A stretch of 64,000 bases of DNA. It comes from Patescibacteria group bacterium. GTDB lineage: Bacteria; Patescibacteriota; Minisyncoccia; Moranbacterales; UBA1568. The notes under the pieces are model-generated. The model did not search any database and was not told the origin of the DNA. It saw only the letters and a list, made by a program, of their open reading frames with translations. Shown piece after piece: positions 1,482 through 40,783 of this stretch (positions are counted from its first letter, which is position 1; every line of letters begins with the position of its first letter). The DNA lies in contig JBBTWT010000003.1 in assembly GCA_038078615.1 (NCBI GenBank), forward strand, positions 2,563-66,562, written 5' to 3'. The translations under genes were made by a program, and so were the position numbers.

Positions 1482-1557
1482 GAAAATAGAATTGAGTGTC
1501 CGAATTGAGAAAAATAGCGTTTTTAGCGTTTTTTTATTTACTGTTGAGCCACCTTCC

Positions 1558-1583
1558 GGAATCCCCGCCGAAGGCGGGCAGGG
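1558..1583. repeat. GC-rich hairpin element GGAATCCCCGCC-GAA-GGCGGGCAGGG
   Basis: 6-bp GC stem (1564-1569 with 1573-1578). A second small hairpin TCCGCC-TTTG-GCGGA lies at 1609-1624. It resembles the hairpin embedded in the gltX insertion (14811-14840, opposite strand). Confidence 0.4.
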
Positions 1584-1644
1584 AACTGGAGACCTACGCG
1601 TGGAGTTTATCCGCCTTTGGCGGAAGTGCGTCATAATTATTCTG

Positions 1645-1717
1645 AGCCAAGACCGGGATTCGAACCCGGGACCTATGCGTTACGAATGCATTGCTCTACC
1701 AACTGAGCTATCTTGGC
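1645..1717 (-). tRNA. tRNA-Thr (anticodon CGU), CCA not encoded
   Basis: rc reads GCCAAGA TA GCTC AGTTGGTA GAGC A ATGCA TTCGTAA CGCAT AGGTC CCGGG TTCGAAT CCCGG TCTTGGC T. This gives a cloverleaf with the T-loop GGTTCGAATCC. Confidence 0.9.
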
Positions 1718-7059: not shown

Positions 7060-8838
7060 ATGGATAACCCGATTTTTTTTCTGATGCGGAAAATGTGGAA
7101 GTTCTCCGAAGGCAACCGCCCTCGGGTCGTTTTATTTGTTTTCATGCTCATCATAGCCAACGCCATCAGCCTGCTCGAACCGCTCATCGTGGCGAAAATC
7201 CTCAACACCGTCCAGGAAGAGGGGGTCACGCTTGCCAATCTGCACGTCTTTTTCATTCTTTTGGGGTTGTTCATCCTTCAGACGGTGGCTTTTTGGATAT
7301 TTCACGGTCCTGCCCGCGTGCTCGAAACATGCAATAGTTTTCTCGTTCGTGCCAATTACAAAAAATACCTGCTCGACGGCACTATCGGGCTTCCGCTCGA
7401 ATGGCACACGGAACATCACTCGGGGGATACTATCGACAAGATCGAAAAAGGAAGCAAGGCTCTGTACAATTTTTCCGAGAACGGTTTCCAATTTATCCAA
7501 GCGGGGGTGCGGTTTGTCGGTTCCATCATCGCCCTGGCACTTTTCAATCTCGATACTATTTTTATCGCACTGCTCATAACCCTCATCGCCATCCGCATCA
7601 TCATCGAATTCGATAAGACGCTCGTGAAACAGTATCGGGAACTCAACGCGGCAGAGAATAAAGTCTCGGCCAAGGTGTATGATGTCATCAGCAATATCTC
7701 GACGGTTGTCATTTTGCGCGTGGAGCAGCTGCTCTCCAATGATCTGTGGAAAAACATCATGAAGCCGTTTGCGCTGTATGTCCGCAATAGCAAGTTGAAT
7801 GAGTGGAAATGGTTTACCGCCAGCCTGGTGAGCGGCACGATGATATCTCTCGTGCTCGGATTCTACGGGTATACGGCGCTTCTGCATGGAGAGACGATCC
7901 TGGTCGGTACCCTGTTCGCACTGTACAGCTATACCGGGCGCATCAATGACATATTCTACAGTTTTGCCTATCTGTACAGCGACACGGTGCGCTGGCGCAC
8001 ATCCATCCAGAACGCCGAAGAATTGTCCGATAATTTTCGTGACGATACGCCCGAGGGGGGTGTCGTACATGCGTGGGACGTCTGCGATATACGCTCTCTC
8101 ACATTCTCATACCACAGCATAGATGATGCCGATCTGCATCTCGATGATATCTCCTTGTCTATCCGTCGCGGAGAGAAAATCGCTGTTATCGGAGAGAGCG
8201 GCAGCGGCAAGACCACATTTCTCAAGATTATCCGCGGGCTCTATATACCGGCGAAGGTATCGGTGAGCCTGGATGCCCGGGAACTTCCGGATGGGTTCAT
8301 TTCGATGAAAAACGACATCGCGCTTATTCCGCAGGAGCCGGAGATATTCGCGACTACTATCCGGGAAAATATCACGATGGGCATAGACCGCACGGAAGAT
8401 GAGATCCGGAAATATATGGATATCGCTCGTTTCAGTGCCGTGGTAGAGCGTCTGCCGCACGGGCTCGATTCTTCCGTCGTGGAACGGGGAGTGAACTTGA
8501 GCGGCGGAGAGAAACAGCGGCTGGCCTTGGTGCGCGGACTGATGGCATCGGAAGAGAAATCCGTGATCCTCCTCGATGAATCGACGAGCAGCGTCGACGC
8601 GCAGAATGAGATCGCCATCTACGAAAACATTTTTTCCACCTATCAGGACAAGACTATCATCGCATCCATCCACAAGCTCCATCTCCTGCGGATGTTCGAT
8701 ACGATCTATATCTTCGACAGAGGCGTCATCAGCGCTTTCGGGAATTTCAACCATCTGTTGCAATCATCGCCGCTCTTCGCCGAGATGTGGCGCAGGTATA
8801 CGGAAACGCACAAAGAATGGGAGGCGCTAGAGGCTTAG
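7060..8838 (+). CDS. ABC exporter, fused permease/ATPase (MsbA-like type)
   Basis: Six-TM N-terminal half. Walker A GESGSGKTT, signature LSGGEKQR, Walker B ILLDEST. Confidence 0.85.
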   Translation: MDNPIFFLMRKMWKFSEGNRPRVVLFVFMLIIANAISLLEPLIVAKILNTVQEEGVTLANLHVFFILLGLFILQTVAFWIFHGPARVLETCNSFLVRANYKKYLLDGTIGLPLEWHTEHHSGDTIDKIEKGSKALYNFSENGFQFIQAGVRFVGSIIALALFNLDTIFIALLITLIAIRIIIEFDKTLVKQYRELNAAENKVSAKVYDVISNISTVVILRVEQLLSNDLWKNIMKPFALYVRNSKLNEWKWFTASLVSGTMISLVLGFYGYTALLHGETILVGTLFALYSYTGRINDIFYSFAYLYSDTVRWRTSIQNAEELSDNFRDDTPEGGVVHAWDVCDIRSLTFSYHSIDDADLHLDDISLSIRRGEKIAVIGESGSGKTTFLKIIRGLYIPAKVSVSLDARELPDGFISMKNDIALIPQEPEIFATTIRENITMGIDRTEDEIRKYMDIARFSAVVERLPHGLDSSVVERGVNLSGGEKQRLALVRGLMASEEKSVILLDESTSSVDAQNEIAIYENIFSTYQDKTIIASIHKLHLLRMFDTIYIFDRGVISAFGNFNHLLQSSPLFAEMWRRYTETHKEWEALEA

Positions 8839-12173: not shown

Positions 12174-13442
12174 TTATGGCAGATAGACGGACGGATTGAC
12201 AGTGGCGCCGATGGGAATCAGGAGTCCTTTGACCGTCTTGGACTGAACCAATTCATAGGAATTTGCCGAGAAAACCGTAAAATGCACGTGTGAACCGGTC
12301 GAGTAGCCGGTGCTTCCTACAGCGCCGATCTTCTCTCCCTGATCGACTTTCTCTCCGCGGCTTACGGAAATCGAACTCATGTGTCCATACAGAGTGATCA
12401 TACCATTACCGTGATCGATAGCCACCCACTTGCCATAGGCGTATCTGCCGAGGTTGCCGGTGCCGATGACTTTGCCGCTGCCAGCCGCGTAGAGAGCCGT
12501 ACCGCTCGGTGCGGCGAAATCGATACCATTATGTTTGCCTGATTTATAAGCTCTTTTGGAAAAACTCGTTTTGCCGTAGCCCTGACTGATGGTGAATTTT
12601 TTCAGTGGGTATGCCAGTAACCCTTTTTTAAATGAGGGCATACCGGAGATCTGTCCGACTTTCCCCGCCTCCAATTCCTCGATCTCGCTCTCGATCTCTT
12701 CGCGCTGTCGCTGCAGATCGTCGACGAGATTGTCATATTTTTTCACTTCCGCCTGCGTTTTCGAGAGAAGGTAGGCCTTGTTGTCCTTGGTGCTTTCGAG
12801 ATAGTCGTTGCGCTCGGTGAGTTGCATCTGGAGCGCGTCAATCTCCTGCTTTTTTGCTTCGAGTGCCGAGCGCTCCCCTGCCAGGCTTTCGCGGAGCGTC
12901 TTGACCGAATCGAGCAGATCGCTGATTTTTCCGTTCACTTCCGTCGTCCAGTTTTCCTGATTCAGGTATGCAAGTGTTTCATCGGAGGAAAAAATCAGCG
13001 TGGCCGCGCCGCCGGAATAATCATCATAATATGAGCGCATCAGTTCCGAAAGTATCTGCCGCTGGCGGCCGATGAGAGATTCCTTTTCTGTGATGCGTGA
13101 GGAAAGGGATGTTATGTCTCCTTCCAGATCATCGACTTTCTGCTTGTTGAGACTTATCTCGAGCTCCAGTTTATCTGCCTGGGCTTGGAGGGATTGGATC
13201 TGGTCGGCGAGCGTCGATCCCTGGCGTTGCTTGAGATTGATGATCTGATTGTAAGCCTTTATTTTCGCGTTGATAGCATCAAGCTGATCCTGTTTATTGT
13301 CGAGTGCTTTTTTCGCTTCTTTGCTGAGTTCCGTAACCTGTGCGTTCACAAAAGAAGCCACAACAACACCAACGCAGAAAAAAACTGCCAAGAATAATCG
13401 TATCGTATATTTTTTATTTTGTCTTCTCATGGTACCTTTCAT
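12174..13442 (-). CDS. M23 family metallopeptidase with N-terminal coiled-coil (EnvC-like)
   Basis: Signal/TM, then a long coiled-coil. M23 motifs HNGIDFAAPSGT and GSTGYSTGSHVHF. Confidence 0.85.
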   Translation of the reverse strand: MKGTMRRQNKKYTIRLFLAVFFCVGVVVASFVNAQVTELSKEAKKALDNKQDQLDAINAKIKAYNQIINLKQRQGSTLADQIQSLQAQADKLELEISLNKQKVDDLEGDITSLSSRITEKESLIGRQRQILSELMRSYYDDYSGGAATLIFSSDETLAYLNQENWTTEVNGKISDLLDSVKTLRESLAGERSALEAKKQEIDALQMQLTERNDYLESTKDNKAYLLSKTQAEVKKYDNLVDDLQRQREEIESEIEELEAGKVGQISGMPSFKKGLLAYPLKKFTISQGYGKTSFSKRAYKSGKHNGIDFAAPSGTALYAAGSGKVIGTGNLGRYAYGKWVAIDHGNGMITLYGHMSSISVSRGEKVDQGEKIGAVGSTGYSTGSHVHFTVFSANSYELVQSKTVKGLLIPIGATVNPSVYLP

Positions 13443-13450
13443 TATACCAT

Positions 13451-13477
13451 AAGAAAAAAAGCCTTATGTAAGGCTTT
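13451..13477 (-). terminator. rho-independent terminator of gltX (overlaps its stop codon)
   Basis: Minus RNA AAAGCCUUA-CA-UAAGGCUUU followed by UUUUUUU. Confidence 0.7.
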
Positions 13478-15080
13478 GGATAGCGGTTTTTATGCGTTTC
13501 AGACTCCGGTCTTTCCCCAAAACCCAAGCGACCTCGAAAGGCGAAGGTGAGCGCTGTGCTCCCGTGAGGGCGACACGCAAAGGCCAAAGGAAATCTCCCC
13601 TGCCTTTTCCCGCCTCAATGCCGCCCAGACTTTGGGCATGATCCTCTGCCGCCTCCATGAGGATTTTTTCGATACCCTCCTTGCTTTCCCATGTCGTATC
13701 ACCGAGAGCGATCAGGAGAGCCTGTGCTTTGACAAGAGCATCAAGCGTCATCGCTTTGGTATTCTGTTTCCAGACAAGAAGCGCGGGATCATAAGAAATC
13801 TCATCGGCGAAGAAGAATGGGTTGTTCTCGCCGACATCCGAGAGTTTCATGAGACGATCTTGCTCGACAACAAGCACGCGCTTCAGGTATGCTTCCGTCT
13901 GCATTTCCTGCGGTGTATTTCTGATCGCATCTTTTTCAAGAAAACCACCTGACTTGATTCTCCTATAAAGCTCGTCGATCGGAAGCTTTTTGATATATTC
14001 GGCGTTCATCCAATCCAGTTTTTTCAGATCGAACACGGCGCCGGACTTGTGGACATTTGCAAGATCGAATGTCTGTATCAATTCGTCAAGTGAGAAAATC
14101 TCCTGCGTGCTGCCGGCTCCGGGATTCCAGCCGAGCAGTGCCACGAAATTAATCAGTGCCTCTTTCAGATAGCCTTTCTTCAGATAGTCTTCGACAGCGA
14201 CGTCACCCTGACGTTTGGAAAGTTTGCTTTTGTCCGGATTGAGAAGGAGCGGGATATGGGCGAACTGCGGCATCTCCCAGGCGAACGCTTCATAGAGCAG
14301 GATATGTTTGGGCGTGCTGGAGAGCCACTCTTCGGCGCGGATGACGTGTGTGATCTGCATCAGGTGATCATCGACGACGTTCGCCAGATGATACGTCGGA
14401 AAACCATCCGACTTCATCAGCACCTGATCATCGATGTCTTGGACATTGATTTTCACTTGTCCTCGTACCATATCATCGAACGCCACATCGCCCCTCTCGG
14501 ACGGAATATTGAGACGGAGAACGTGCGGTTCGCCGGCTGTCAGTCTCTTCATCACTTCGTCAGGTGCGAGCGCGAGGCAATGTTTGTCGTATTTCGGCGC
14601 CTGCTTGTTGCGAGCTTGTTCCTCACGTACCGACGTCAGTCGTTCAGCCGTACAAAAACAATGATAGGCTTTGCCGCTTGTTACCAGTTCATCGGCATAC
14701 TTCTTGTAAATATCGAGACGCTCTGATTGGATATATGGCCCAGAGTTACCAATTTCAATGACATCAGGATAATTCTTTGACTCTTTGGTTTCTTTCTCTT
14801 GATTCGTGATTCCTCCCGCCTGCCGGACGGGCAGGGATTCCTGATTCTTCTTCAAAAAAACGCCTTCATCAGGGATCAGCCCTGTCTCATTGAGGCTTGT
14901 GACAAGACTCTCGATTGTTCCCGGGACAAAACGTTTCTGATCCGTATCTTCGATGCGCAGGATGAACGTGCCGCCGTTTTTCTTGGCGAAGAGATAGTTA
15001 TAGAGCGCGGTGCGCAGACCGCCGACATGGAGGTACCCCGTCGGTGATGGCGCGAAGCGGAGCCGAATATTATTTTTCAT
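13464..15080 (-). CDS. gltX: glutamate--tRNA ligase
   Basis: HIGH-type APSPTGYLHVGG, RIEDTD, KLSKR. Carries a ~30-codon insertion (see repeat at 14769-14858). Confidence 0.95.
   Translation of the reverse strand: MKNNIRLRFAPSPTGYLHVGGLRTALYNYLFAKKNGGTFILRIEDTDQKRFVPGTIESLVTSLNETGLIPDEGVFLKKNQESLPVRQAGGITNQEKETKESKNYPDVIEIGNSGPYIQSERLDIYKKYADELVTSGKAYHCFCTAERLTSVREEQARNKQAPKYDKHCLALAPDEVMKRLTAGEPHVLRLNIPSERGDVAFDDMVRGQVKINVQDIDDQVLMKSDGFPTYHLANVVDDHLMQITHVIRAEEWLSSTPKHILLYEAFAWEMPQFAHIPLLLNPDKSKLSKRQGDVAVEDYLKKGYLKEALINFVALLGWNPGAGSTQEIFSLDELIQTFDLANVHKSGAVFDLKKLDWMNAEYIKKLPIDELYRRIKSGGFLEKDAIRNTPQEMQTEAYLKRVLVVEQDRLMKLSDVGENNPFFFADEISYDPALLVWKQNTKAMTLDALVKAQALLIALGDTTWESKEGIEKILMEAAEDHAQSLGGIEAGKGRGDFLWPLRVALTGAQRSPSPFEVAWVLGKDRSLKRIKTAIQSLT
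14769..14858 (-). repeat. in-frame insertion in gltX: GC hairpin plus heptamer-phased A-rich tract
   Basis: Encodes FLKKNQESLPVRQAGGITNQEKETKESKNY between the conserved DEG and GPYxQSER blocks. Canonical GluRS sequences as I recall them (e.g. Thermus) have only about 7 residues there. Contains hairpin CCTGCC-GGACG-GGCAGG (14819-14835). Confidence 0.6.
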
Positions 15081-15174: not shown

Positions 15175-15337
15175 TTGCATAAAATAGCAACAGTGGAGGG
15201 AAACATGAGTCGATGACATAAATTAGGAGCAGGGTTTCGCGCAACCCGTGGTTGAGACTCCTGGGGTGTCCCAAAGGTCACAAAAAGACCAACTCAACCG
15301 ACTGCCGCCCCGATAGACTCTTATCTGGGCGGCTTTA
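15175..15337 (+). ncRNA. candidate small RNA (unknown family)
   Basis: Bounded by the promoter above and by a hairpin GCCGCCCCGATA-GACTCT-TATCTGGGCGGC + TTT (15304-15336). Interior has nested stems GGGTT/AACCC, GGTTGAG/CTCAACC, TGGG/CCCA and GGTC/GACC. Confidence 0.25.
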
Positions 15338-16034
15338 CATTGCCTATGATCTTCAGTGGGAAAACGATTGTGGCGTTCCAGATTCTTCGCCACCTTTTCG
15401 GCTGGAGGATGAGGCGCCAGAGCCATTCGAGGCCAAGAGTGCGGAGCAGCTTCGGGGCGCGCTTCTGTCTGCCAGTGAGATAGTCGAGACTGCCGCCGAC
15501 ACCCATCGCGAGCCTGATGCCATCCTGATCCTTGAGGCCATCGAGAAAGATTTCCTGTTCCGGAGCGCCGAAGTTGCACAGAACGAGCTTGTAGCTTGTA
15601 GCTTGTAGCTTGTAGCTTTCTGAATACTTTGGATCTATATCAGCACCGTCGATAATAAGACGAGAATATTCTTTTTGTAGTACTGCTTTTATTTCTTCGT
15701 ACGAACTCAAACCGTCTTTTCGGATAGCGAGATAGACACCGAGATTATTTTTCTCAGCAATGTGCAGGACTTCATCTATCAGATCGGCACCAGGAAAGCG
15801 GTGAATGAATTTTCCTTGAAATAGTCCGGCGAGCACGATACCGAAACCATCAGCGATACGGAGATCCGCATCGAGCAGAGCTCGGCGGAAAGCCCCATCT
15901 TTTTCTGCTCGGAGCAGAAATTCCGGATTGACCGTCGCGATCCGATGAAACCGCGATTCTTCCAAAAATTCCCGAATGCGGCTTATAATATCCTCACGAG
16001 AAAGATCATCGATCTCTATTCCGAAAATTTTCAT
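15321..16034 (-). CDS. WecG/TagA/CpsF family glycosyltransferase
   Basis: MKIFGIEIDD..., NPEFLL, GAPEQE, and the C-terminal LEWLWRLILQPKRWRR motif typical of the family. ATG at 16034; an upstream TTG at 16046 is an alternative. Confidence 0.85.
   Translation of the reverse strand: MKIFGIEIDDLSREDIISRIREFLEESRFHRIATVNPEFLLRAEKDGAFRRALLDADLRIADGFGIVLAGLFQGKFIHRFPGADLIDEVLHIAEKNNLGVYLAIRKDGLSSYEEIKAVLQKEYSRLIIDGADIDPKYSESYKLQATSYKLVLCNFGAPEQEIFLDGLKDQDGIRLAMGVGGSLDYLTGRQKRAPKLLRTLGLEWLWRLILQPKRWRRIWNATIVFPLKIIGNVKPPR
15586..15618. repeat. heptanucleotide tandem repeat (AGCTTGT) x4.7 inside the TagA-like CDS
   Basis: Direct reading. Encodes SYKLQAT-SYKL on the minus strand. Confidence 0.95.
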
Positions 16035-16037
16035 CCC

Positions 16038-16065
16038 AGTTACCAATTACGGATTACCGGTTACT
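16038..16065. repeat. heptamer-phased tract AGTTACC AATTACG GATTACC GGTTACT at the thpR stop / TagA-like start junction
   Basis: Direct reading. Spans the spacer 16035-16060 plus the thpR stop codon. Confidence 0.7.
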
Positions 16066-23847: not shown

Positions 23848-25151
23848 TACGGATTGAGCGAGTTTCTGAAAAGTTCATGTATGCGATCGTAGTTGTCGCC
23901 GACAGGAAGAATGATGGAGCCGGCGCCCGGATATCTGTCTCTCTCAGGGAAATACAGCAGTCCGTTCTCTGAAGTATCGAGCACCTTCTGATTGATGTTG
24001 CCCGTATCTCCAGCCTTCTGATACAGATCGAACAGGCGCTTCATCTCCCAGGCTTCCATATTCGTACTCACATTGTTGCCGAGGCTGTCCATCATGGCGC
24101 TGACTTTGGAAAAATCGGTCAGTGTTCCGAGGCTGAGCGCTTTTTCCTTTATCAGCTTGATGATTTCCTGCTGGCGCTCGGCGCGGGCAAAATCGCTGGA
24201 AGTTTCTCGGGCGCGGGCATAGCAGAGCGCCTTGTCGCCATCAAGGAGATTTTCCCCGGCTGGCAGCTTGAAATTTCCGCTACACTCGAGCTCCGCAATG
24301 GCTTCCTGGGTCATCTTTTCGAAACAGAGCGGGTAGCGTTTCGGATTGGCGTAATAGGTGCCGTTTTTCCGCTGGATGCGCTTTTCTTCATATTCTCCTG
24401 AAAACACCGTATACTTTATGCCATCGCAACGCTTCTTCAAGCCGCGGAATTGCAGGCCTTCTTCGAATGGCTGATTGAGATTCACGGTCACTCCGCCGAT
24501 GGCATTCACGAGATCCTTGAACCCCTGAAAATTGATAGTGATCGCGTAAGGGATATCGAGACCGGTTATTTCTCCGACAATGGCCCGCATATCTTCCATA
24601 CCGCCCTTGTGCAGTTCCCGCTTTTCGCCTTCCGCATAGACCGCATTGATCTTGCTCTGCCAATCCTGCCTTGGAACCTTCACATAGAAATCACGAGGAA
24701 TGGATATGAGCGATGCGCGCGTCATGTCCTGATCATCCTGTTTCGGATGGAGAGAGAGCACTATGATCGTGTCCGCGAGCGATCCGCCTCCGACGACGCC
24801 TTCTCCGCGCATACCGAGAAGGAGGATATTGATGCGTCCCTCATCTTCACCGTCCAATTTCTTTTCCACGCCCGGCAAAGACTTCACGAGACTCTTGAAA
24901 ATATTCGCGTTGCCTCCGGAAATCTTGTTGAGGGTGACGCCCGTTTTCCACGCGAATACCGTGCCGGCGATGAGGAGAAGCGCCAGAAAAAAACCGGCTA
25001 TGCGCCAGGCGCGATGTTTTTTCGGCACTGTCGCTGCCTGAGAAAACTGTCCGTTATCCGTCTTTTTAAAAAAAAGCATAATGAAAACAAAAAAAAAATT
25101 ACCCGGAACTACGGTGCTATTTTGAGCTTGGTCAACGAATGACACTGTCAT
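23847..25151 (-). CDS. LCP (LytR-CpsA-Psr) family glycopolymer ligase
   Basis: TM, then INILLLGMRGEG, LADTIIVLS, ISIPRDFYVKVP. Alternative start at 25079 (MLFFKK). Confidence 0.85.
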   Translation of the reverse strand: MTVSFVDQAQNSTVVPGNFFFVFIMLFFKKTDNGQFSQAATVPKKHRAWRIAGFFLALLLIAGTVFAWKTGVTLNKISGGNANIFKSLVKSLPGVEKKLDGEDEGRINILLLGMRGEGVVGGGSLADTIIVLSLHPKQDDQDMTRASLISIPRDFYVKVPRQDWQSKINAVYAEGEKRELHKGGMEDMRAIVGEITGLDIPYAITINFQGFKDLVNAIGGVTVNLNQPFEEGLQFRGLKKRCDGIKYTVFSGEYEEKRIQRKNGTYYANPKRYPLCFEKMTQEAIAELECSGNFKLPAGENLLDGDKALCYARARETSSDFARAERQQEIIKLIKEKALSLGTLTDFSKVSAMMDSLGNNVSTNMEAWEMKRLFDLYQKAGDTGNINQKVLDTSENGLLYFPERDRYPGAGSIILPVGDNYDRIHELFRNSLNP

Positions 25152-27941: not shown

Positions 27942-29144
27942 TTATTCCAATGTGGCTAATGTTTTTTCCGTGAAGCTCTTCCAGCTGAATTGTACCGCTT
28001 GAGGGGCGCTTCGGGCAATGAGCGATCCGCGCAGCGTCTCGTCTGTCAGCAGCCGCTCCATCTGCGCCGCCATCTCTTCGGCATTCTCCGGATCGACGTA
28101 GAGAACGGCGTCCCCGCCCACTTCCGGCAGCGACGATGTCCCGGAAACGAGAGCCGGCACGCTCATCCGAAGCGCCTCGAGCACCGGCAGGCCGAATCCC
28201 TCATACAGCGACGGGTAGACGAAAAACAGCGCGCCATGATAGAGGGCAGGCAGATCTTCATCCGGTACGAATCCGAGCAGCTTCACTTTTTCTTGCAATC
28301 CCAACTCTTCCACTAGGCCTCGTACATCCGTTGCCAGCTTATTATTTTTATCAAAAACCTTCCCACTGATCACAAGCGGCGGAACTTCTTTCCTTGACTG
28401 CTGACCGGCATTCGTTGTCTGTTGTCTGTTAACGGTTAACTGTTGATACGCCCGTAACAGCGTCTCCGCGTTCTTGCGGATCTCGAGTCCCCCGCCATGA
28501 TAGATATAGCCGGAATGCAGATCATATTTCTTCAGAACATCAGCGGCCGCTTCCGCAGTGATGACTCGGGAAAACCGCGGCGCGACATCGAGAAAGGCGA
28601 CCGATATCTTTTCGACGGGGATATCCAGCGCGCGCATCAGATCGCTTTTCGTGTGTTCCGATATCGCCACGATATGATCGGCCGCGCGGATGCCCCGTTC
28701 CACCGCCTTCCAGTGCCATGTCTGCCGCATGTTCCCGAGATACTGCGGAAACAGCCGCGGAATGATATCGTGGACTACCATCGTGTGCCGTATCGTTTTT
28801 TGCTGACCGCTGACCGTTGACTGAAAAATGGTCGATGACTGATAGAGGCTGAGGAAAGCGTCGCAGCCGTCTTTCGCCGCTTCGCGCGCCGCCTGTTTCT
28901 CCCAAAGCATCTTCCTGATCAGATCGTCGCGCTTCCAGAACGGCAGGAAGACGCGCATATGGAAATTCTCCGGCAACGAAAAGTCAAGTCCCGGCTCCTC
29001 CTCGCAATACAAAAAGAATTCCGAGTTTTGACATTTGGAATTTGAATTTTGACATTCCGCTAACTTTTGTAAAAAGTTAGCGGTCACCTGCCCGATCCCG
29101 GTTCCCGGCTTGCGCAGAAATGAGGCGTTGATTCCGATTTTCAT
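27942..29144 (-). CDS. glycosyltransferase family 4 carrying three in-frame low-complexity tracts
   Basis: MKIGINASFLRKPGTGIGQ... and PSLYEGFGLPVLEALRMSVPALVSGTSSLPEVGGDAVLYVDP. ATG at 29144 preferred over 29225. Confidence 0.85.
   Translation of the reverse strand: MKIGINASFLRKPGTGIGQVTANFLQKLAECQNSNSKCQNSEFFLYCEEEPGLDFSLPENFHMRVFLPFWKRDDLIRKMLWEKQAAREAAKDGCDAFLSLYQSSTIFQSTVSGQQKTIRHTMVVHDIIPRLFPQYLGNMRQTWHWKAVERGIRAADHIVAISEHTKSDLMRALDIPVEKISVAFLDVAPRFSRVITAEAAADVLKKYDLHSGYIYHGGGLEIRKNAETLLRAYQQLTVNRQQTTNAGQQSRKEVPPLVISGKVFDKNNKLATDVRGLVEELGLQEKVKLLGFVPDEDLPALYHGALFFVYPSLYEGFGLPVLEALRMSVPALVSGTSSLPEVGGDAVLYVDPENAEEMAAQMERLLTDETLRGSLIARSAPQAVQFSWKSFTEKTLATLE
28393..28448. repeat. heptamer-phased tract (..GTTGTCT GTTGTCT GTTAACG GTTAACT GTTGATA) inside the GT4 CDS
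   Basis: Direct reading. Encodes QQLTVNRQQTTNAGQQSRKE on the minus strand. Confidence 0.85.
28802..28843. repeat. heptamer-phased tract (GCTGACC GCTGACC GTTGACT ...) inside the GT4 CDS
   Basis: Direct reading. Encodes QSTVSGQQKT on the minus strand. Confidence 0.8.
29025..29082. repeat. heptamer-phased tract (GTTTTGA CATTTGG AATTTGA ATTTTGA CATTCCG) abutting an 11-bp-stem palindrome, inside the GT4 CDS
   Basis: Encodes ECQNSNSKCQNSE. The palindrome CGCTAACTTTT-GTA-AAAAGTTAGCG (29058-29082) encodes TANFLQKLA. Confidence 0.75.
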
Positions 29145-40156: not shown

Positions 40157-40783
40157 ATGAGTATGAAATTCATCACTTTTTCCGGAGTCGACGGGTCGGG
40201 AAAGTCAACTCAACTCGCGCTCTTGCGGGAAAAACTGGAACGCGAGAACTGGAACGTCGCGTATTTTCACGCGATCGATTTCTCGCTGGTAAACCAGCTC
40301 GCAAGAACCAAGAACCAAAATCCAATCACCAAAAATACTCAGGATCAGGATACTGGAAAATCGAAAACATCGGCATCATGGTGTACTATCTTCCTACGGA
40401 AAATGTTCCTCCTCATCGATCTGATACGGTTTCGTTTTTATTTGAAACGGCTGAAACGCGAGAATTGCGACTATCTCCTCTCCGATCGCTATTTCTACGA
40501 CTCCATCGTCAACATCGAGTACCTCCAATCCGCCGATTTCGCTTTCATCACTCATCACTCATCACTCATCACTCATCCGGACACGGCCCTGTATCTCGAT
40601 ATTTCCCCGGACACTATCATGTCGCGCGAGCGCGCCCCGGAACAAGGCATCGAGTACCTCCGTGCCAAACAGGGACTCTTTCAACAGAAAATCAAAGACT
40701 GGAATATGATCGTCATCGACGCACACGGAAAAAAAGAAGATATTTTCAATTCCATCCTGAAAGCTATAAGCCAAAAGCTGTAA
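40157..40783 (+). CDS. thymidylate kinase-like P-loop kinase with two in-frame repeat tracts
   Basis: P-loop FSGVDGSGKST, SDRYFYDS, PDTALYLDISPDTIMSR are colinear with the dTMP kinase family. The NMP-binding REPGG block is not recognisable. Confidence 0.6.
   Translation: MSMKFITFSGVDGSGKSTQLALLREKLERENWNVAYFHAIDFSLVNQLARTKNQNPITKNTQDQDTGKSKTSASWCTIFLRKMFLLIDLIRFRFYLKRLKRENCDYLLSDRYFYDSIVNIEYLQSADFAFITHHSSLITHPDTALYLDISPDTIMSRERAPEQGIEYLRAKQGLFQQKIKDWNMIVIDAHGKKEDIFNSILKAISQKL
40304..40366. repeat. heptamer-phased tract AGAACCA AGAACCA AAATCCA ATCACCA AAAATAC TCAGGAT CAGGATA ... inside the Tmk-like CDS
   Basis: Direct reading. Encodes TKNQNPITKNTQDQDTGKSK and contains the CCAATCACC motif. 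Confidence 0.8.
40545..40577. repeat. heptanucleotide tandem repeat (TCATCAC) x4.7 inside the Tmk-like CDS
   Basis: Direct reading. Encodes ITHHSSL-ITH. Confidence 0.95.

Follow-up and report, generated by a model that had tools for sequence, protein, structure and literature searches.

How does a gene for an essential enzyme come to carry a GC-rich hairpin in the middle of its coding sequence? The question is raised by a 64,000-nt stretch of DNA (hereafter the window) from a Patescibacteria group bacterium (GenBank assembly GCA_038078615.1, contig JBBTWT010000003.1, positions 2,563 to 66,562), in which gltX, the gene for glutamate--tRNA ligase, contains a 21-nt imperfect palindrome that we call element B. 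The original prediction, made from the letters of the window, proposed that gltX had received an in-frame insertion of about 30 codons, made of a GC hairpin and an A-rich tract, and that a related hairpin in non-coding DNA belonged to the same small element family. The analysis reported here divides this segment differently. Observation establishes that B is a DNA-level insertion with presence/absence polymorphism, whose length and sequence keep all reading frames open; it is probably an ultra-small, non-autonomous hairpin element that entered a variable loop cassette of the synthetase recently and is translated there without a function for the enzyme.

Element B in the surface loop of glutamyl-tRNA synthetase

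Judged from its sequence, the product of gltX is a class I glutamyl-tRNA synthetase (GluRS) with both a catalytic and an anticodon-binding domain. Pfam recovers tRNA-synt_1c (PF00749, 2.5e-106) and Anticodon_2 (PF19269, 9.9e-24), the translated sequence contains the motifs HVGG and KLSKR, and a search of the PDB returns GluRS structures with E-values down to 1e-109. A protein from a metagenome-assembled genome (MAG), labelled "Patescibacteria group bacterium" at NCBI, matches it at 100%, and its nearest named relatives are from Moranbacteria. Between the conserved DEG and GPY blocks the protein reads ...DEGVFLKKNQESLPVRQAGGITNQEKETKESKNYPDVIEIGNSGPYIQSER..., and residues 75-110 (36 residues) are left unaligned by the PDB alignments, 4gri (Borrelia) and 1j09 (Thermus) having 3-4 residues at this place. 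The extra segment of about 32 residues is thus real relative to solved structures, in line with the original prediction, which had contrasted it with a canonical handful of residues.

Most of this segment is shared with relatives. In an alignment of 47 GluRS homologues (59-83% identity), the commonest linker, found in most of them, is a 14-aa form (VFLENGxxxQKGDx), and a subset has linkers of 24-38 aa, all of which contain [ST]xSKNYPxxxE[IV]G. The 40-aa linker of the window differs from those of its two nearest relatives, P0002 (83%) and P0003 (80%), by the presence of LPVRQAG and nothing else. At the DNA level, comparison with the related loci L001 and L002 gives a clean 21-nt indel, the window reading ...GAATCAGGAATC(CCTGCCCGTCCGGCAGGCGGG)AGGAATCACG... 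in gene sense and the relatives ...GAATCAGGAATC-AGGAAT...; B is also missing from gltX of a 72% relative (L265), and has left no trace in L266 and L267. On these alignments, only 21 nt (7 codons) of the gltX linker are private to this genome. Among the indels of at least 6 nt found over about 14 kb of synteny, B is the sole strongly GC-rich one (86% GC, the others reaching at most 62%).

The insertion originally proposed is therefore smaller than had been thought. Its hairpin, CCTGCC-GGACG-GGCAGG with flanking GATTCCT repeats, has the sequence and the position claimed (14819-14835) and was indeed inserted; it does not, however, form one unit with the A-rich tract, as only 7 codons are private and the long loop is partly common to relatives. 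The tract is a degenerate (GAATCAG)n array that is present in the nearest relatives without the hairpin: TRF finds (GAATCAG)x4.4 in L001 at the matching place in gltX, where the hairpin is missing. The distal half of the segment, which had been counted as inserted, is an ESKNYPxxxE[IV]G beta-hairpin common to many relatives. Since the same four heptamers that surround the B site already exist in relatives, there is no net target duplication in gltX.

The AlphaFold model of GluRS (mean predicted local distance difference test, pLDDT, of 87) places strands at residues 98-100 and 107-110, residues 101-110 having a mean pLDDT of 95; the ESKNYPxxxE[IV]G part is thereby confidently modelled as a beta-hairpin. 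The B-coded residues 83-89 are in coil and overlap the only stretch of the loop with pLDDT below 50 (residues 87-93), which places B, in the model, where a loop on the surface of the Rossmann domain has its disordered tip.

The cassette that accommodates B appears to be unstable in its own right. On a neighbour-joining tree from which the loop was left out, the gltX alleles with a long loop do not group together but are scattered. P0028 (from L266) has a long ESKNYP loop with a perfect (GTCAACA)4 array in its DNA and is 90% and 88% identical to the short-loop proteins P0040 (L268) and P0044, respectively; the DNA flanking the loop of the window is closer to short-loop P0005 (L269) than to long-loop P0002. 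From these comparisons, the presence of the cassette varies among Moranbacteria-like relatives, and the cassette seems to be exchanged or lost quickly.

Taken by itself, the B hairpin is statistically unremarkable within the window. It folds as DNA at -6.7 kcal/mol, representing 92% of the ensemble, and a comparable 6-bp hairpin is contained in 10 of 100 shuffled sequences. The 12-mer GGAATCCCYGCC occurs twice in the window against 0.02 expected, a pattern picked after seeing the data. A local hairpin family enriched in the window was considered and rejected, as its GC-rich hairpins number 16 against about 13 expected from shuffles, no second B was found within 3 mismatches in the 64 kb, and no other strongly GC-rich indel exists in the 14 kb compared. 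A special mRNA structure at the gltX insert was likewise discarded (z-score of -0.74 relative to shuffles). The significance of B comes instead from the precise 21-nt indel relative to relatives, combined with its massive exact recurrence outside the window, where controls give zero.

Recurrence of element B, its sites and its siblings

Two scans bear on this recurrence: a first one, of one genome per species, used the motif of the original prediction with a forced GGAATC flank, and a later one searched the exact 21-mer without any flank. The first scan returned recurring hairpins, including an exact 27-mer made of GGAATC and the reverse complement of B in MAGs labelled Prolixibacteraceae, Bdellovibrionales and Dehalococcoidia. 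GGAATC was subsequently rejected as a part of the element: it is flank sequence, belonging to a heptamer unit, a tRNA T-loop or the stem of a repetitive extragenic palindromic (REP) sequence of the CGTC type, and had been imposed by the scan. With the flank-free search, exact B was found in more than 120 metagenome contigs among the matches listed, as well as in 19 viral (IMG/VR) stretches, whereas two control 21-mers (reversed B and a local shuffle of B) had no match in the viral collection. The search for further hairpins suggested by the original prediction thus finds no other copy within the window and abundant exact ones in other genomes and viruses. Altogether, 166 B copies were read; their flanks are unrelated and the GC content of their loci ranges from 0.32 to 0.74.

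B is free of stop codons in six frames (PACRTGR, PPAGRAG, RLPDGQ, PARPAGG, LPVRQAG and CPSGRR), all of which are used among the copies, and 110 of the 166 lie within open stretches of at least 150 codons. By Pfam, the host genes include those for three further LeuRS, ProRS, LepA, RelA/SpoT, a P-type ATPase (CopA), a histidine kinase, PBP2 and an AcrB-like permease. For two such loci, L197 and L139, the named proteins that come closest are from Parcubacteria-type Patescibacteria. A high density is seen in the prophage contigs of one IMG genome (GC 42%), with about 26 copies in 80 kb, located in genes for tail sheath, large terminase, Mu-F-like and other structural proteins.

The AcrB-like gene provides a second clean case of presence/absence, as judged from its alignment: 7 extra B-coded residues are found in L139 (JGI) and in the 98%-identical P0260, from independent ENA data, and 12 homologues of 84-91% identity lack these residues while their flanks are perfectly conserved. 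In addition, B occupies the same place despite diverged flanks in three pairs of contigs from different samples (L248/L253, L151/L198 and L178/L230). The flank-identity screen for such orthologous pairs is noisy, with random pairs reaching up to 61%, and only a few clear pairs were relied upon.

Three contexts are enriched among the sites of B. With re-paired flanks as a control, 18 of the 150 copies scored lie in the loop of another hairpin, such as a terminator or, in one instance, a REP of the GTAG type, against 4.25 expected; 16 have a 7-nt direct repeat on both sides, against 0.55, and no other length from 2 to 10 comes near this enrichment; and 7 lie in tandem arrays of period exactly 7, against 0.2. 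The gltX copy is an instance of this last context. The flanking positions themselves show weak preferences: position -1 is a purine in 78% of the copies, position +1 is T in 42% and position +2 is A in 49%. A constant target-site duplication was rejected, the gltX and AcrB-like indels being exact and the 7-nt repeat being present at only about 11% of the copies.

The association with heptamers extends beyond the immediate neighbourhood of B. Among the tandem arrays of B-bearing loci (L123-L261), those with a 7-nt period are the most frequent; they number 37 in 881 kb, compared with 8 in the 868 kb of the control loci (L003-L122), and the copy numbers of the arrays in B-bearing loci cluster at 4.3-4.7, i.e., one unit plus 21 nt. 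In L197, an identical 51-nt unit (TTGGAAATTGGA + B + AATTGGAAATTGGAAATT) is found in-frame in a TatD-like gene and, inverted, in the LeuRS gene; therefore, heptamer repeats and B can travel together, an observation in favour of the composite of hairpin and tract originally proposed. The window itself has perfect in-frame heptamer arrays in two other genes, a WecG-like glycosyltransferase and a dTMP-kinase-like gene (Table 1). At the WecG-like site, L001 and L002 have different arrays, (GAGAATC)4... and (GAATCAG/GAATTGA)2-GATC-(TTGATTC)4, with partly inverted arms. The "+21 nt" step is hence met in two forms, once as B and once as a gain of three heptamers.

Three side observations follow. B alternates with single 7-nt spacers (GATTGCG-B-GATTTCG-B-GATTGCG) in L191 (2721-2769) and L163 (~2600-2670). 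The window has two more 21-nt insertions relative to L001, neither of them GC-rich, at 13305-13325 in an M23 peptidase gene and at 24298-24318 in a gene near 24.3 kb, and 21-nt indels seem over-represented among the indels that separate these genomes. Finally, a copy of B with one mismatch lies near the 3' end of hsdS on a Shewanella baltica plasmid from a cultured isolate (L263, 1507-1527), where chance is possible.

The second hairpin of the window, GGAATCCCCGCC-GAA-GGCGGGCAGGG at 1558-1583, is in intergenic DNA. Read on the minus strand, this region gives TCCAG-TTC(CCTGCCCGCCTTCGGCGGG)GATT-CCGGA-AGGTGGCTC, i.e., a T-arm and an acceptor 3' strand, with the hairpin inside the T-loop. Positions 1540-1640 were also considered as a structured RNA resembling that of the signal recognition particle, owing to a CCGGAAGG motif; Rfam gave nothing at the gathering score or at E<=10, and a remnant of the 3' half of a tRNA-Thr was retained instead. 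With Rfam 15, only tRNAs are above threshold in the window, and nothing credible appears at E<=10 around either hairpin or around a T-loop copy.

The same architecture is found again in Nomurabacteria, Parcubacteria, Saccharibacteria, Chitinophagaceae and others (L009, L011, L018, L021, L022, L054, L099, L104, L106 and L108): a tRNA copy, partial or pseudo, whose T-loop has a hairpin of 19-20 nt placed between C56 and G57. The hairpin is usually the sequence A (CCTGCCTGCCGGCAGGCAGG), and the tRNA copy shares its strand with a genuine tRNA gene some 10-110 nt away, of which it usually lies downstream. Partial 3'-half copies from Bacteroidota and Patescibacteria MAGs (L018, 3895-4081; L009, L011, L021, L099, L104, L106 and L108) vary in their 5' truncation, have mostly a tRNA-Arg as intact partner, and each contain a 20-nt GC palindrome in the T-loop. 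A is also present in 35 viral stretches, where some copies lie within phage tRNA genes, in the variable loop or the D-loop, and others between 7-nt repeats; examples in tRNA or tRNA-like genes of viral contigs are L300 (~515-534), L293 (~2284-2303) and L243 (~8616-8635), and a hairpin in a variable loop would mimic a long extra arm. A, B and the 1558 copy share a common plan, CCYG-CCYGCC-loop-GGCRGG. The relation that had been proposed between the two hairpins of the window is thus borne out, as is that of one small-element family in coding and non-coding DNA, B recurring widely in open reading frames (ORFs) and its sibling standing at 1558. The GGAATC thought to link the two copies fell away, being a heptamer unit in gltX and part of the tRNA T-loop at 1558.

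Siblings are seen in other palindromes as well. A 19-nt version of A lies inside a multi-copy REP-like family (...ATGGAATC-CCTGCCTGCGGCAGGCAGG-TCGCA...) of cultured Cyclobacteriaceae, namely Algoriphagus and Lunatimonas (L024, L027, L042, L043, L051, L058, L061, L072, L090, L093, L105, L120 and L121). Hairpins of the family are also found beside or inside CGTC/dRS3-like REPs (TGTCATTCCCGC...GCGGGAATCC) of several phyla (two in L014; L033, L068, L086, L102, L119, L162 and L194), which looks like one small palindrome nested in another.

Table 1. Location of element B, its sibling and the associated features in the window.
Feature	Position	Strand	Basis or remark
Diverged tRNA-Thr 3'-half copy (anticodon-stem 3' strand, T-arm, acceptor 3' strand)	1546..1601	minus	Aligns with tRNA-Thr and with the tRNA-Arg/remnant pair of L018; flank comparison
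Sibling hairpin element, tRNA sense CCTGCCCGCCTTCGGCGGG, 19 nt, between TTC and GATT of the T-loop	1564..1582	minus	DNA fold -7.1 kcal/mol
Intact tRNA-Thr(CGT) gene, ~45 nt upstream of the remnant	1644..1717	minus	ARAGORN; Rfam tRNA 69.9 bits
gltX, glutamate--tRNA ligase, 538 aa, host of B	13464..15080	minus	ORF list, Pfam, MAG protein match, PDB GluRS matches
Expanded DEG-GPY linker, V74-S113, 40 aa	14742..14861	minus	Alignment of 47 homologues; PDB alignments
Conserved distal part of the loop cassette, E100-S113, ESKNYPDVIEIGNS, modelled beta-hairpin	14742..14783	minus	Motif in all long-loop relatives; AlphaFold model
Degenerate heptanucleotide array, 3' of B in gene sense (AGGAATC ACGAATC AAGAGAA AGAAACC AAAGAGT)	14778..14814	minus	
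GATTCCT direct repeats flanking B	14808-14814 and 14836-14842		
Element B, 21 nt, CCCGCCTGCCGGACGGGCAGG; gene sense CCTGCCCGTCCGGCAGGCGGG; encodes L83-G89, LPVRQAG	14815..14835	plus	Absent from L001, L002 and L265
5' tail CCCG of B	14815-14818	plus	
Hairpin in B, 6-bp stem CCTGCC/GGCAGG, loop GGACG	14819..14835	plus	DNA fold
Heptanucleotide units, 5' of B in gene sense (AAGAATC AGGAATC)	14836..14852	minus	
Perfect array AGCTTGT x4.7, peptide YKLQATSYKL, in-frame in WecG-like glycosyltransferase ORF 15321-16046	15586-15618	minus	
Short period-7 array	28414-28430		
Shorter (CAAGAAC) array, in-frame in dTMP-kinase-like ORF 40157-40783	40302-40334	plus	
Perfect array (TCATCAC)x4.7, peptide FITHHSSLITHP, in-frame in dTMP-kinase-like ORF 40157-40783	40545-40577	plus	

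Explanations for element B

The explanation that we favour for the gltX segment has three layers. The first would be the surface-loop cassette, whose proximal half derives from heptanucleotide tandem repeats and whose distal half is the ESKNYP..E[IV]G beta-hairpin; the second, one copy of B, recently and cleanly inserted between two heptamer units with no net target duplication; and the third, the translation of these 7 stop-free codons as LPVRQAG at the disordered tip of the loop, as a neutral heptapeptide that would serve no function in GluRS. B would be moved in trans by some enzyme, as expected of a non-autonomous selfish element. Its mobile form is probably single-stranded DNA, which would enter single-stranded loops and come and go seamlessly, since its preference for loops and slipped repeats and its seamless junctions recall HUH/IS200-IS605-type chemistry, and gain and loss may be fast enough to leave few decayed copies. 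The mechanism is the weakest part of this account. B would then belong to a family of 19-21-nt hairpins inhabiting ORFs, the loops of hairpins (terminators, REPs and tRNA-gene loops) and period-7 arrays in uncultured bacteria, notably Patescibacteria, and in phages.

Several observations weigh against this explanation. Only 24 variants within 3 edits accompany 167 exact copies in the same 945 kb, and such a scarcity of diverged copies is odd for an old selfish family. The isolates of PLSDB and INPHARED (9.6 Gb) contain one exact B, on a GC-rich plasmid where chance is possible, together with one copy with a mismatch. No protein family recurs near B, the most widespread one being an aminoacyl-tRNA synthetase at 7 of 139 loci; the B-dense prophage contigs have ordinary phage genes only, with no transposase among the 25 Pfam families listed, and no association with RAYT (IS200/IS605-type) was seen at the loci of B-bearing contigs or among these families. 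Moreover, the window holds just one B and one sibling, so local proliferation is not supported, and the direction of the gltX event, a gain here and not a loss in relatives, rests on parsimony.

Some of these points also count in favour of other explanations. B could be a functional word that selection keeps identical to the benefit of hosts and phages: it might bind a protein or an RNA, serve as a signal for uptake or packaging, or act in mRNA as a regulatory hairpin. Its extreme uniformity (the 167 exact copies against 24 near variants), the roughly 26 copies per 80 kb of one prophage contig set, essential structural genes included, and its identity in contig pairs whose flanks differ by 4-30%, a comparison biased by the collection of exact copies only, all go in this direction. 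We nonetheless hold a functional word to be unlikely, as B occurs in each of the six frames and in either orientation, its contexts are unrelated, and where it stands with respect to genes is not consistent; one copy per 64-kb window is too sparse for a genome-wide signal, and the RNA fold around the gltX copy is no stabler than shuffles. Known uptake or Chi-type words arise through point mutation and not through clean 21-nt insertion, unlike what is seen in gltX and the AcrB-like gene. The missing transposase, near B copies as in B-dense contigs, is also what would be expected if B were not mobile at all but filler DNA, left at single-stranded loops by repair or replication (templated insertion or polymerase stuttering) together with slipped heptamers, the same process adding three heptamers elsewhere. 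This would account for the two appearances of the "+21 nt" quantum, as B and as period-7 arrays of 4.3-4.7 copies, for the excess of period 7 in B-bearing loci (37 vs 8), for the different heptamer arrays of three relatives at the WecG-like site, and for the preference of B for loops and heptamer junctions. Yet the same 21 letters in hosts of 32-74% GC would need a shared template, of which none was found, and the 51-nt composite present in two genes resembles copy-and-insert, so that we consider filler DNA decidedly improbable.

Two further possibilities are addressed more directly by the comparison of independent sequences. An artefact of assembly, sequencing or library preparation would be suggested by the invariance of B, by its length, a common k-mer size, by its near restriction to metagenome contigs and MAGs (it is almost absent from isolate plasmids and phages) and by a roughly three-fold excess of copies within 60 nt of locus ends (15 vs 5.1 expected). 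Insertions at the same position in independent data (JGI L139 and ENA P0260) and in pairs with diverged flanks (L248/L253 and L151/L198) speak against it, as do the many projects and assemblers from which the B contigs come, the zero matches of control 21-mers in the viral collection, and the seamless insertion with contiguous flanks. Natural variants and siblings also exist, including in cultured Algoriphagus and Lunatimonas genomes and in a MAG-set contig that its MFD sample name leads us to take as long-read. We know of no adaptor or linker that leaves a seamless insertion and, to our knowledge, a foreign k-mer cannot be introduced by a de Bruijn graph. An artefact of assembly or library preparation is accordingly unlikely, and of all explanations we give it the least credence. 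As to the direction of the gltX event, B could be ancestral in the loop cassette and lost once or repeatedly in relatives, the window keeping the older state: hairpins are easily lost by slippage, the cassette is gained and lost on short time scales, and the heptamer+B composite exists elsewhere (L197). We find this very doubtful, since L001, L002 and L265, all long-loop with 72-83% protein identity, lack exactly 21 nt, L266 and L267 show no trace, and deletion between the flanking 7-nt repeats would take 28 nt instead of 21 and break the frame.

A recent insertion of B thus remains the explanation that we prefer for gltX. Beyond this locus, we propose more tentatively, as a possibility short of an even chance, that B and its 19-20-nt siblings represent an undescribed class of elements that insert seamlessly into single-stranded loops in Patescibacteria, probably in other phyla, and in phages, and that they are tied to the "+21-nt" process that also makes heptamer arrays. 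If so, this would be a DNA insertion mechanism of a new type, remodelling the loops at the surface of essential proteins. The chance that B represents something mechanistically new is substantial. If this account holds, B would be among the smallest dispersed insertion elements known to us, a fixed 21-letter word able to sit in any frame of any gene, essential ones included, in uncultured bacteria and viruses, and it could serve as a searchable marker for the process creating protein-loop insertions in the reduced genomes of Patescibacteria. Three puzzles are linked by B: the GC hairpins of tRNA-gene loops and tRNA remnants, the heptanucleotide arrays that lie in-frame, and the patchy occurrence of loop cassettes among housekeeping enzymes. 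Its insertion mechanism becomes testable via phylogenetic profiling of B-rich genomes. It also carries a warning for annotation and phylogenomics, as such inserts give spurious indels and low-complexity segments in marker proteins.

Comparison with known systems

Neither the sequences of the B family nor the six encoded peptides were found in the searchable literature, where keyword searches gave only work on REPs and on Rickettsia palindromic elements (RPEs). A CRISPR array, an integron attC site and a group I intron in a tRNA were rejected on spacing or size, tRNA introns of Patescibacteria being located in the anticodon loop.

MITEs, or miniature inverted-repeat transposable elements, are non-autonomous, palindromic, dispersed sequences of 50-500 bp that are mobilised in trans and that end in inverted repeats and duplicate a target site of fixed length. 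Palindromic and dispersed as well, B may share with them non-autonomy and mobilisation in trans, but it is only 21 nt long, left neither gltX nor the AcrB-like gene with a duplication, and has the 7-nt flanking repeat at 16 of 150 copies. The mobile GC clusters and the "byp" elements of yeast mitochondria, reportedly described by de Zamaroczy and Bernardi and by Lang et al. in 2014, are said to be GC-rich hairpins of about 30-50 nt that spread in AT-richer genomes and can occur in coding sequence; byps are skipped through translational bypassing. They are mitochondrial and have no sequence relation with B, which is stop-free in all frames and so translatable. As for the host protein, lineage-specific surface insertions are common in aminoacyl-tRNA synthetases. 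The GluRS loop cassette is one more such insertion, located at the surface of a class I synthetase's catalytic domain, and differs from them in consisting partly of heptanucleotide repeats, in varying between 90%-identical relatives, and in carrying a foreign 21-nt hairpin.

RPEs, reportedly described by Ogata et al. in 2000, are said to lie in-frame in essential genes, where they are translated and tolerated at the protein surface. They are about 100-150 bp long and confined to Rickettsia. B resembles them in its in-frame position in gltX, the AcrB-like gene and many ORFs, and probably in being translated as a surface peptide; it differs in its 21 nt and in its hosts, which are Patescibacteria, contigs binned to other phyla, and phages. 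REPs, among them the GTAG- and CGTC-tagged families and intragenic REPs, are dispersed GC-rich imperfect palindromes of 20-40 nt that do not code for anything themselves and are sometimes found in ORFs, including tRNA synthetase genes, where they add few in-frame residues (Di Nocera et al., 2013, PMC3733652). The CGTC class has no known transposase of its own, and RPE-4 and RPE-6 are discussed in the same article (PMC3733652). B, as a 21-nt imperfect palindrome forming a stable DNA hairpin (-6.7 kcal/mol), is of REP size. In contrast to REPs, it has no terminal GTAG or CGTC tag (it starts with CCCG and ends with CAGG, CGTC being present only in the loop, on the reverse strand), its stem has just 6 bp, and it lies mostly in long open stretches (110 of 166) instead of being extragenic. 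Its copy number, one plus one sibling per 64 kb in the window, contrasts with that of denser genomes (about 26 per 80 kb), it is identical across hosts of varied GC content and taxonomy and hence not species-specific, and it is often nested within the loops of other REPs or of terminators. We place B among the palindromic mini-elements that invade ORFs, with REPs and RPEs as the closest known systems.

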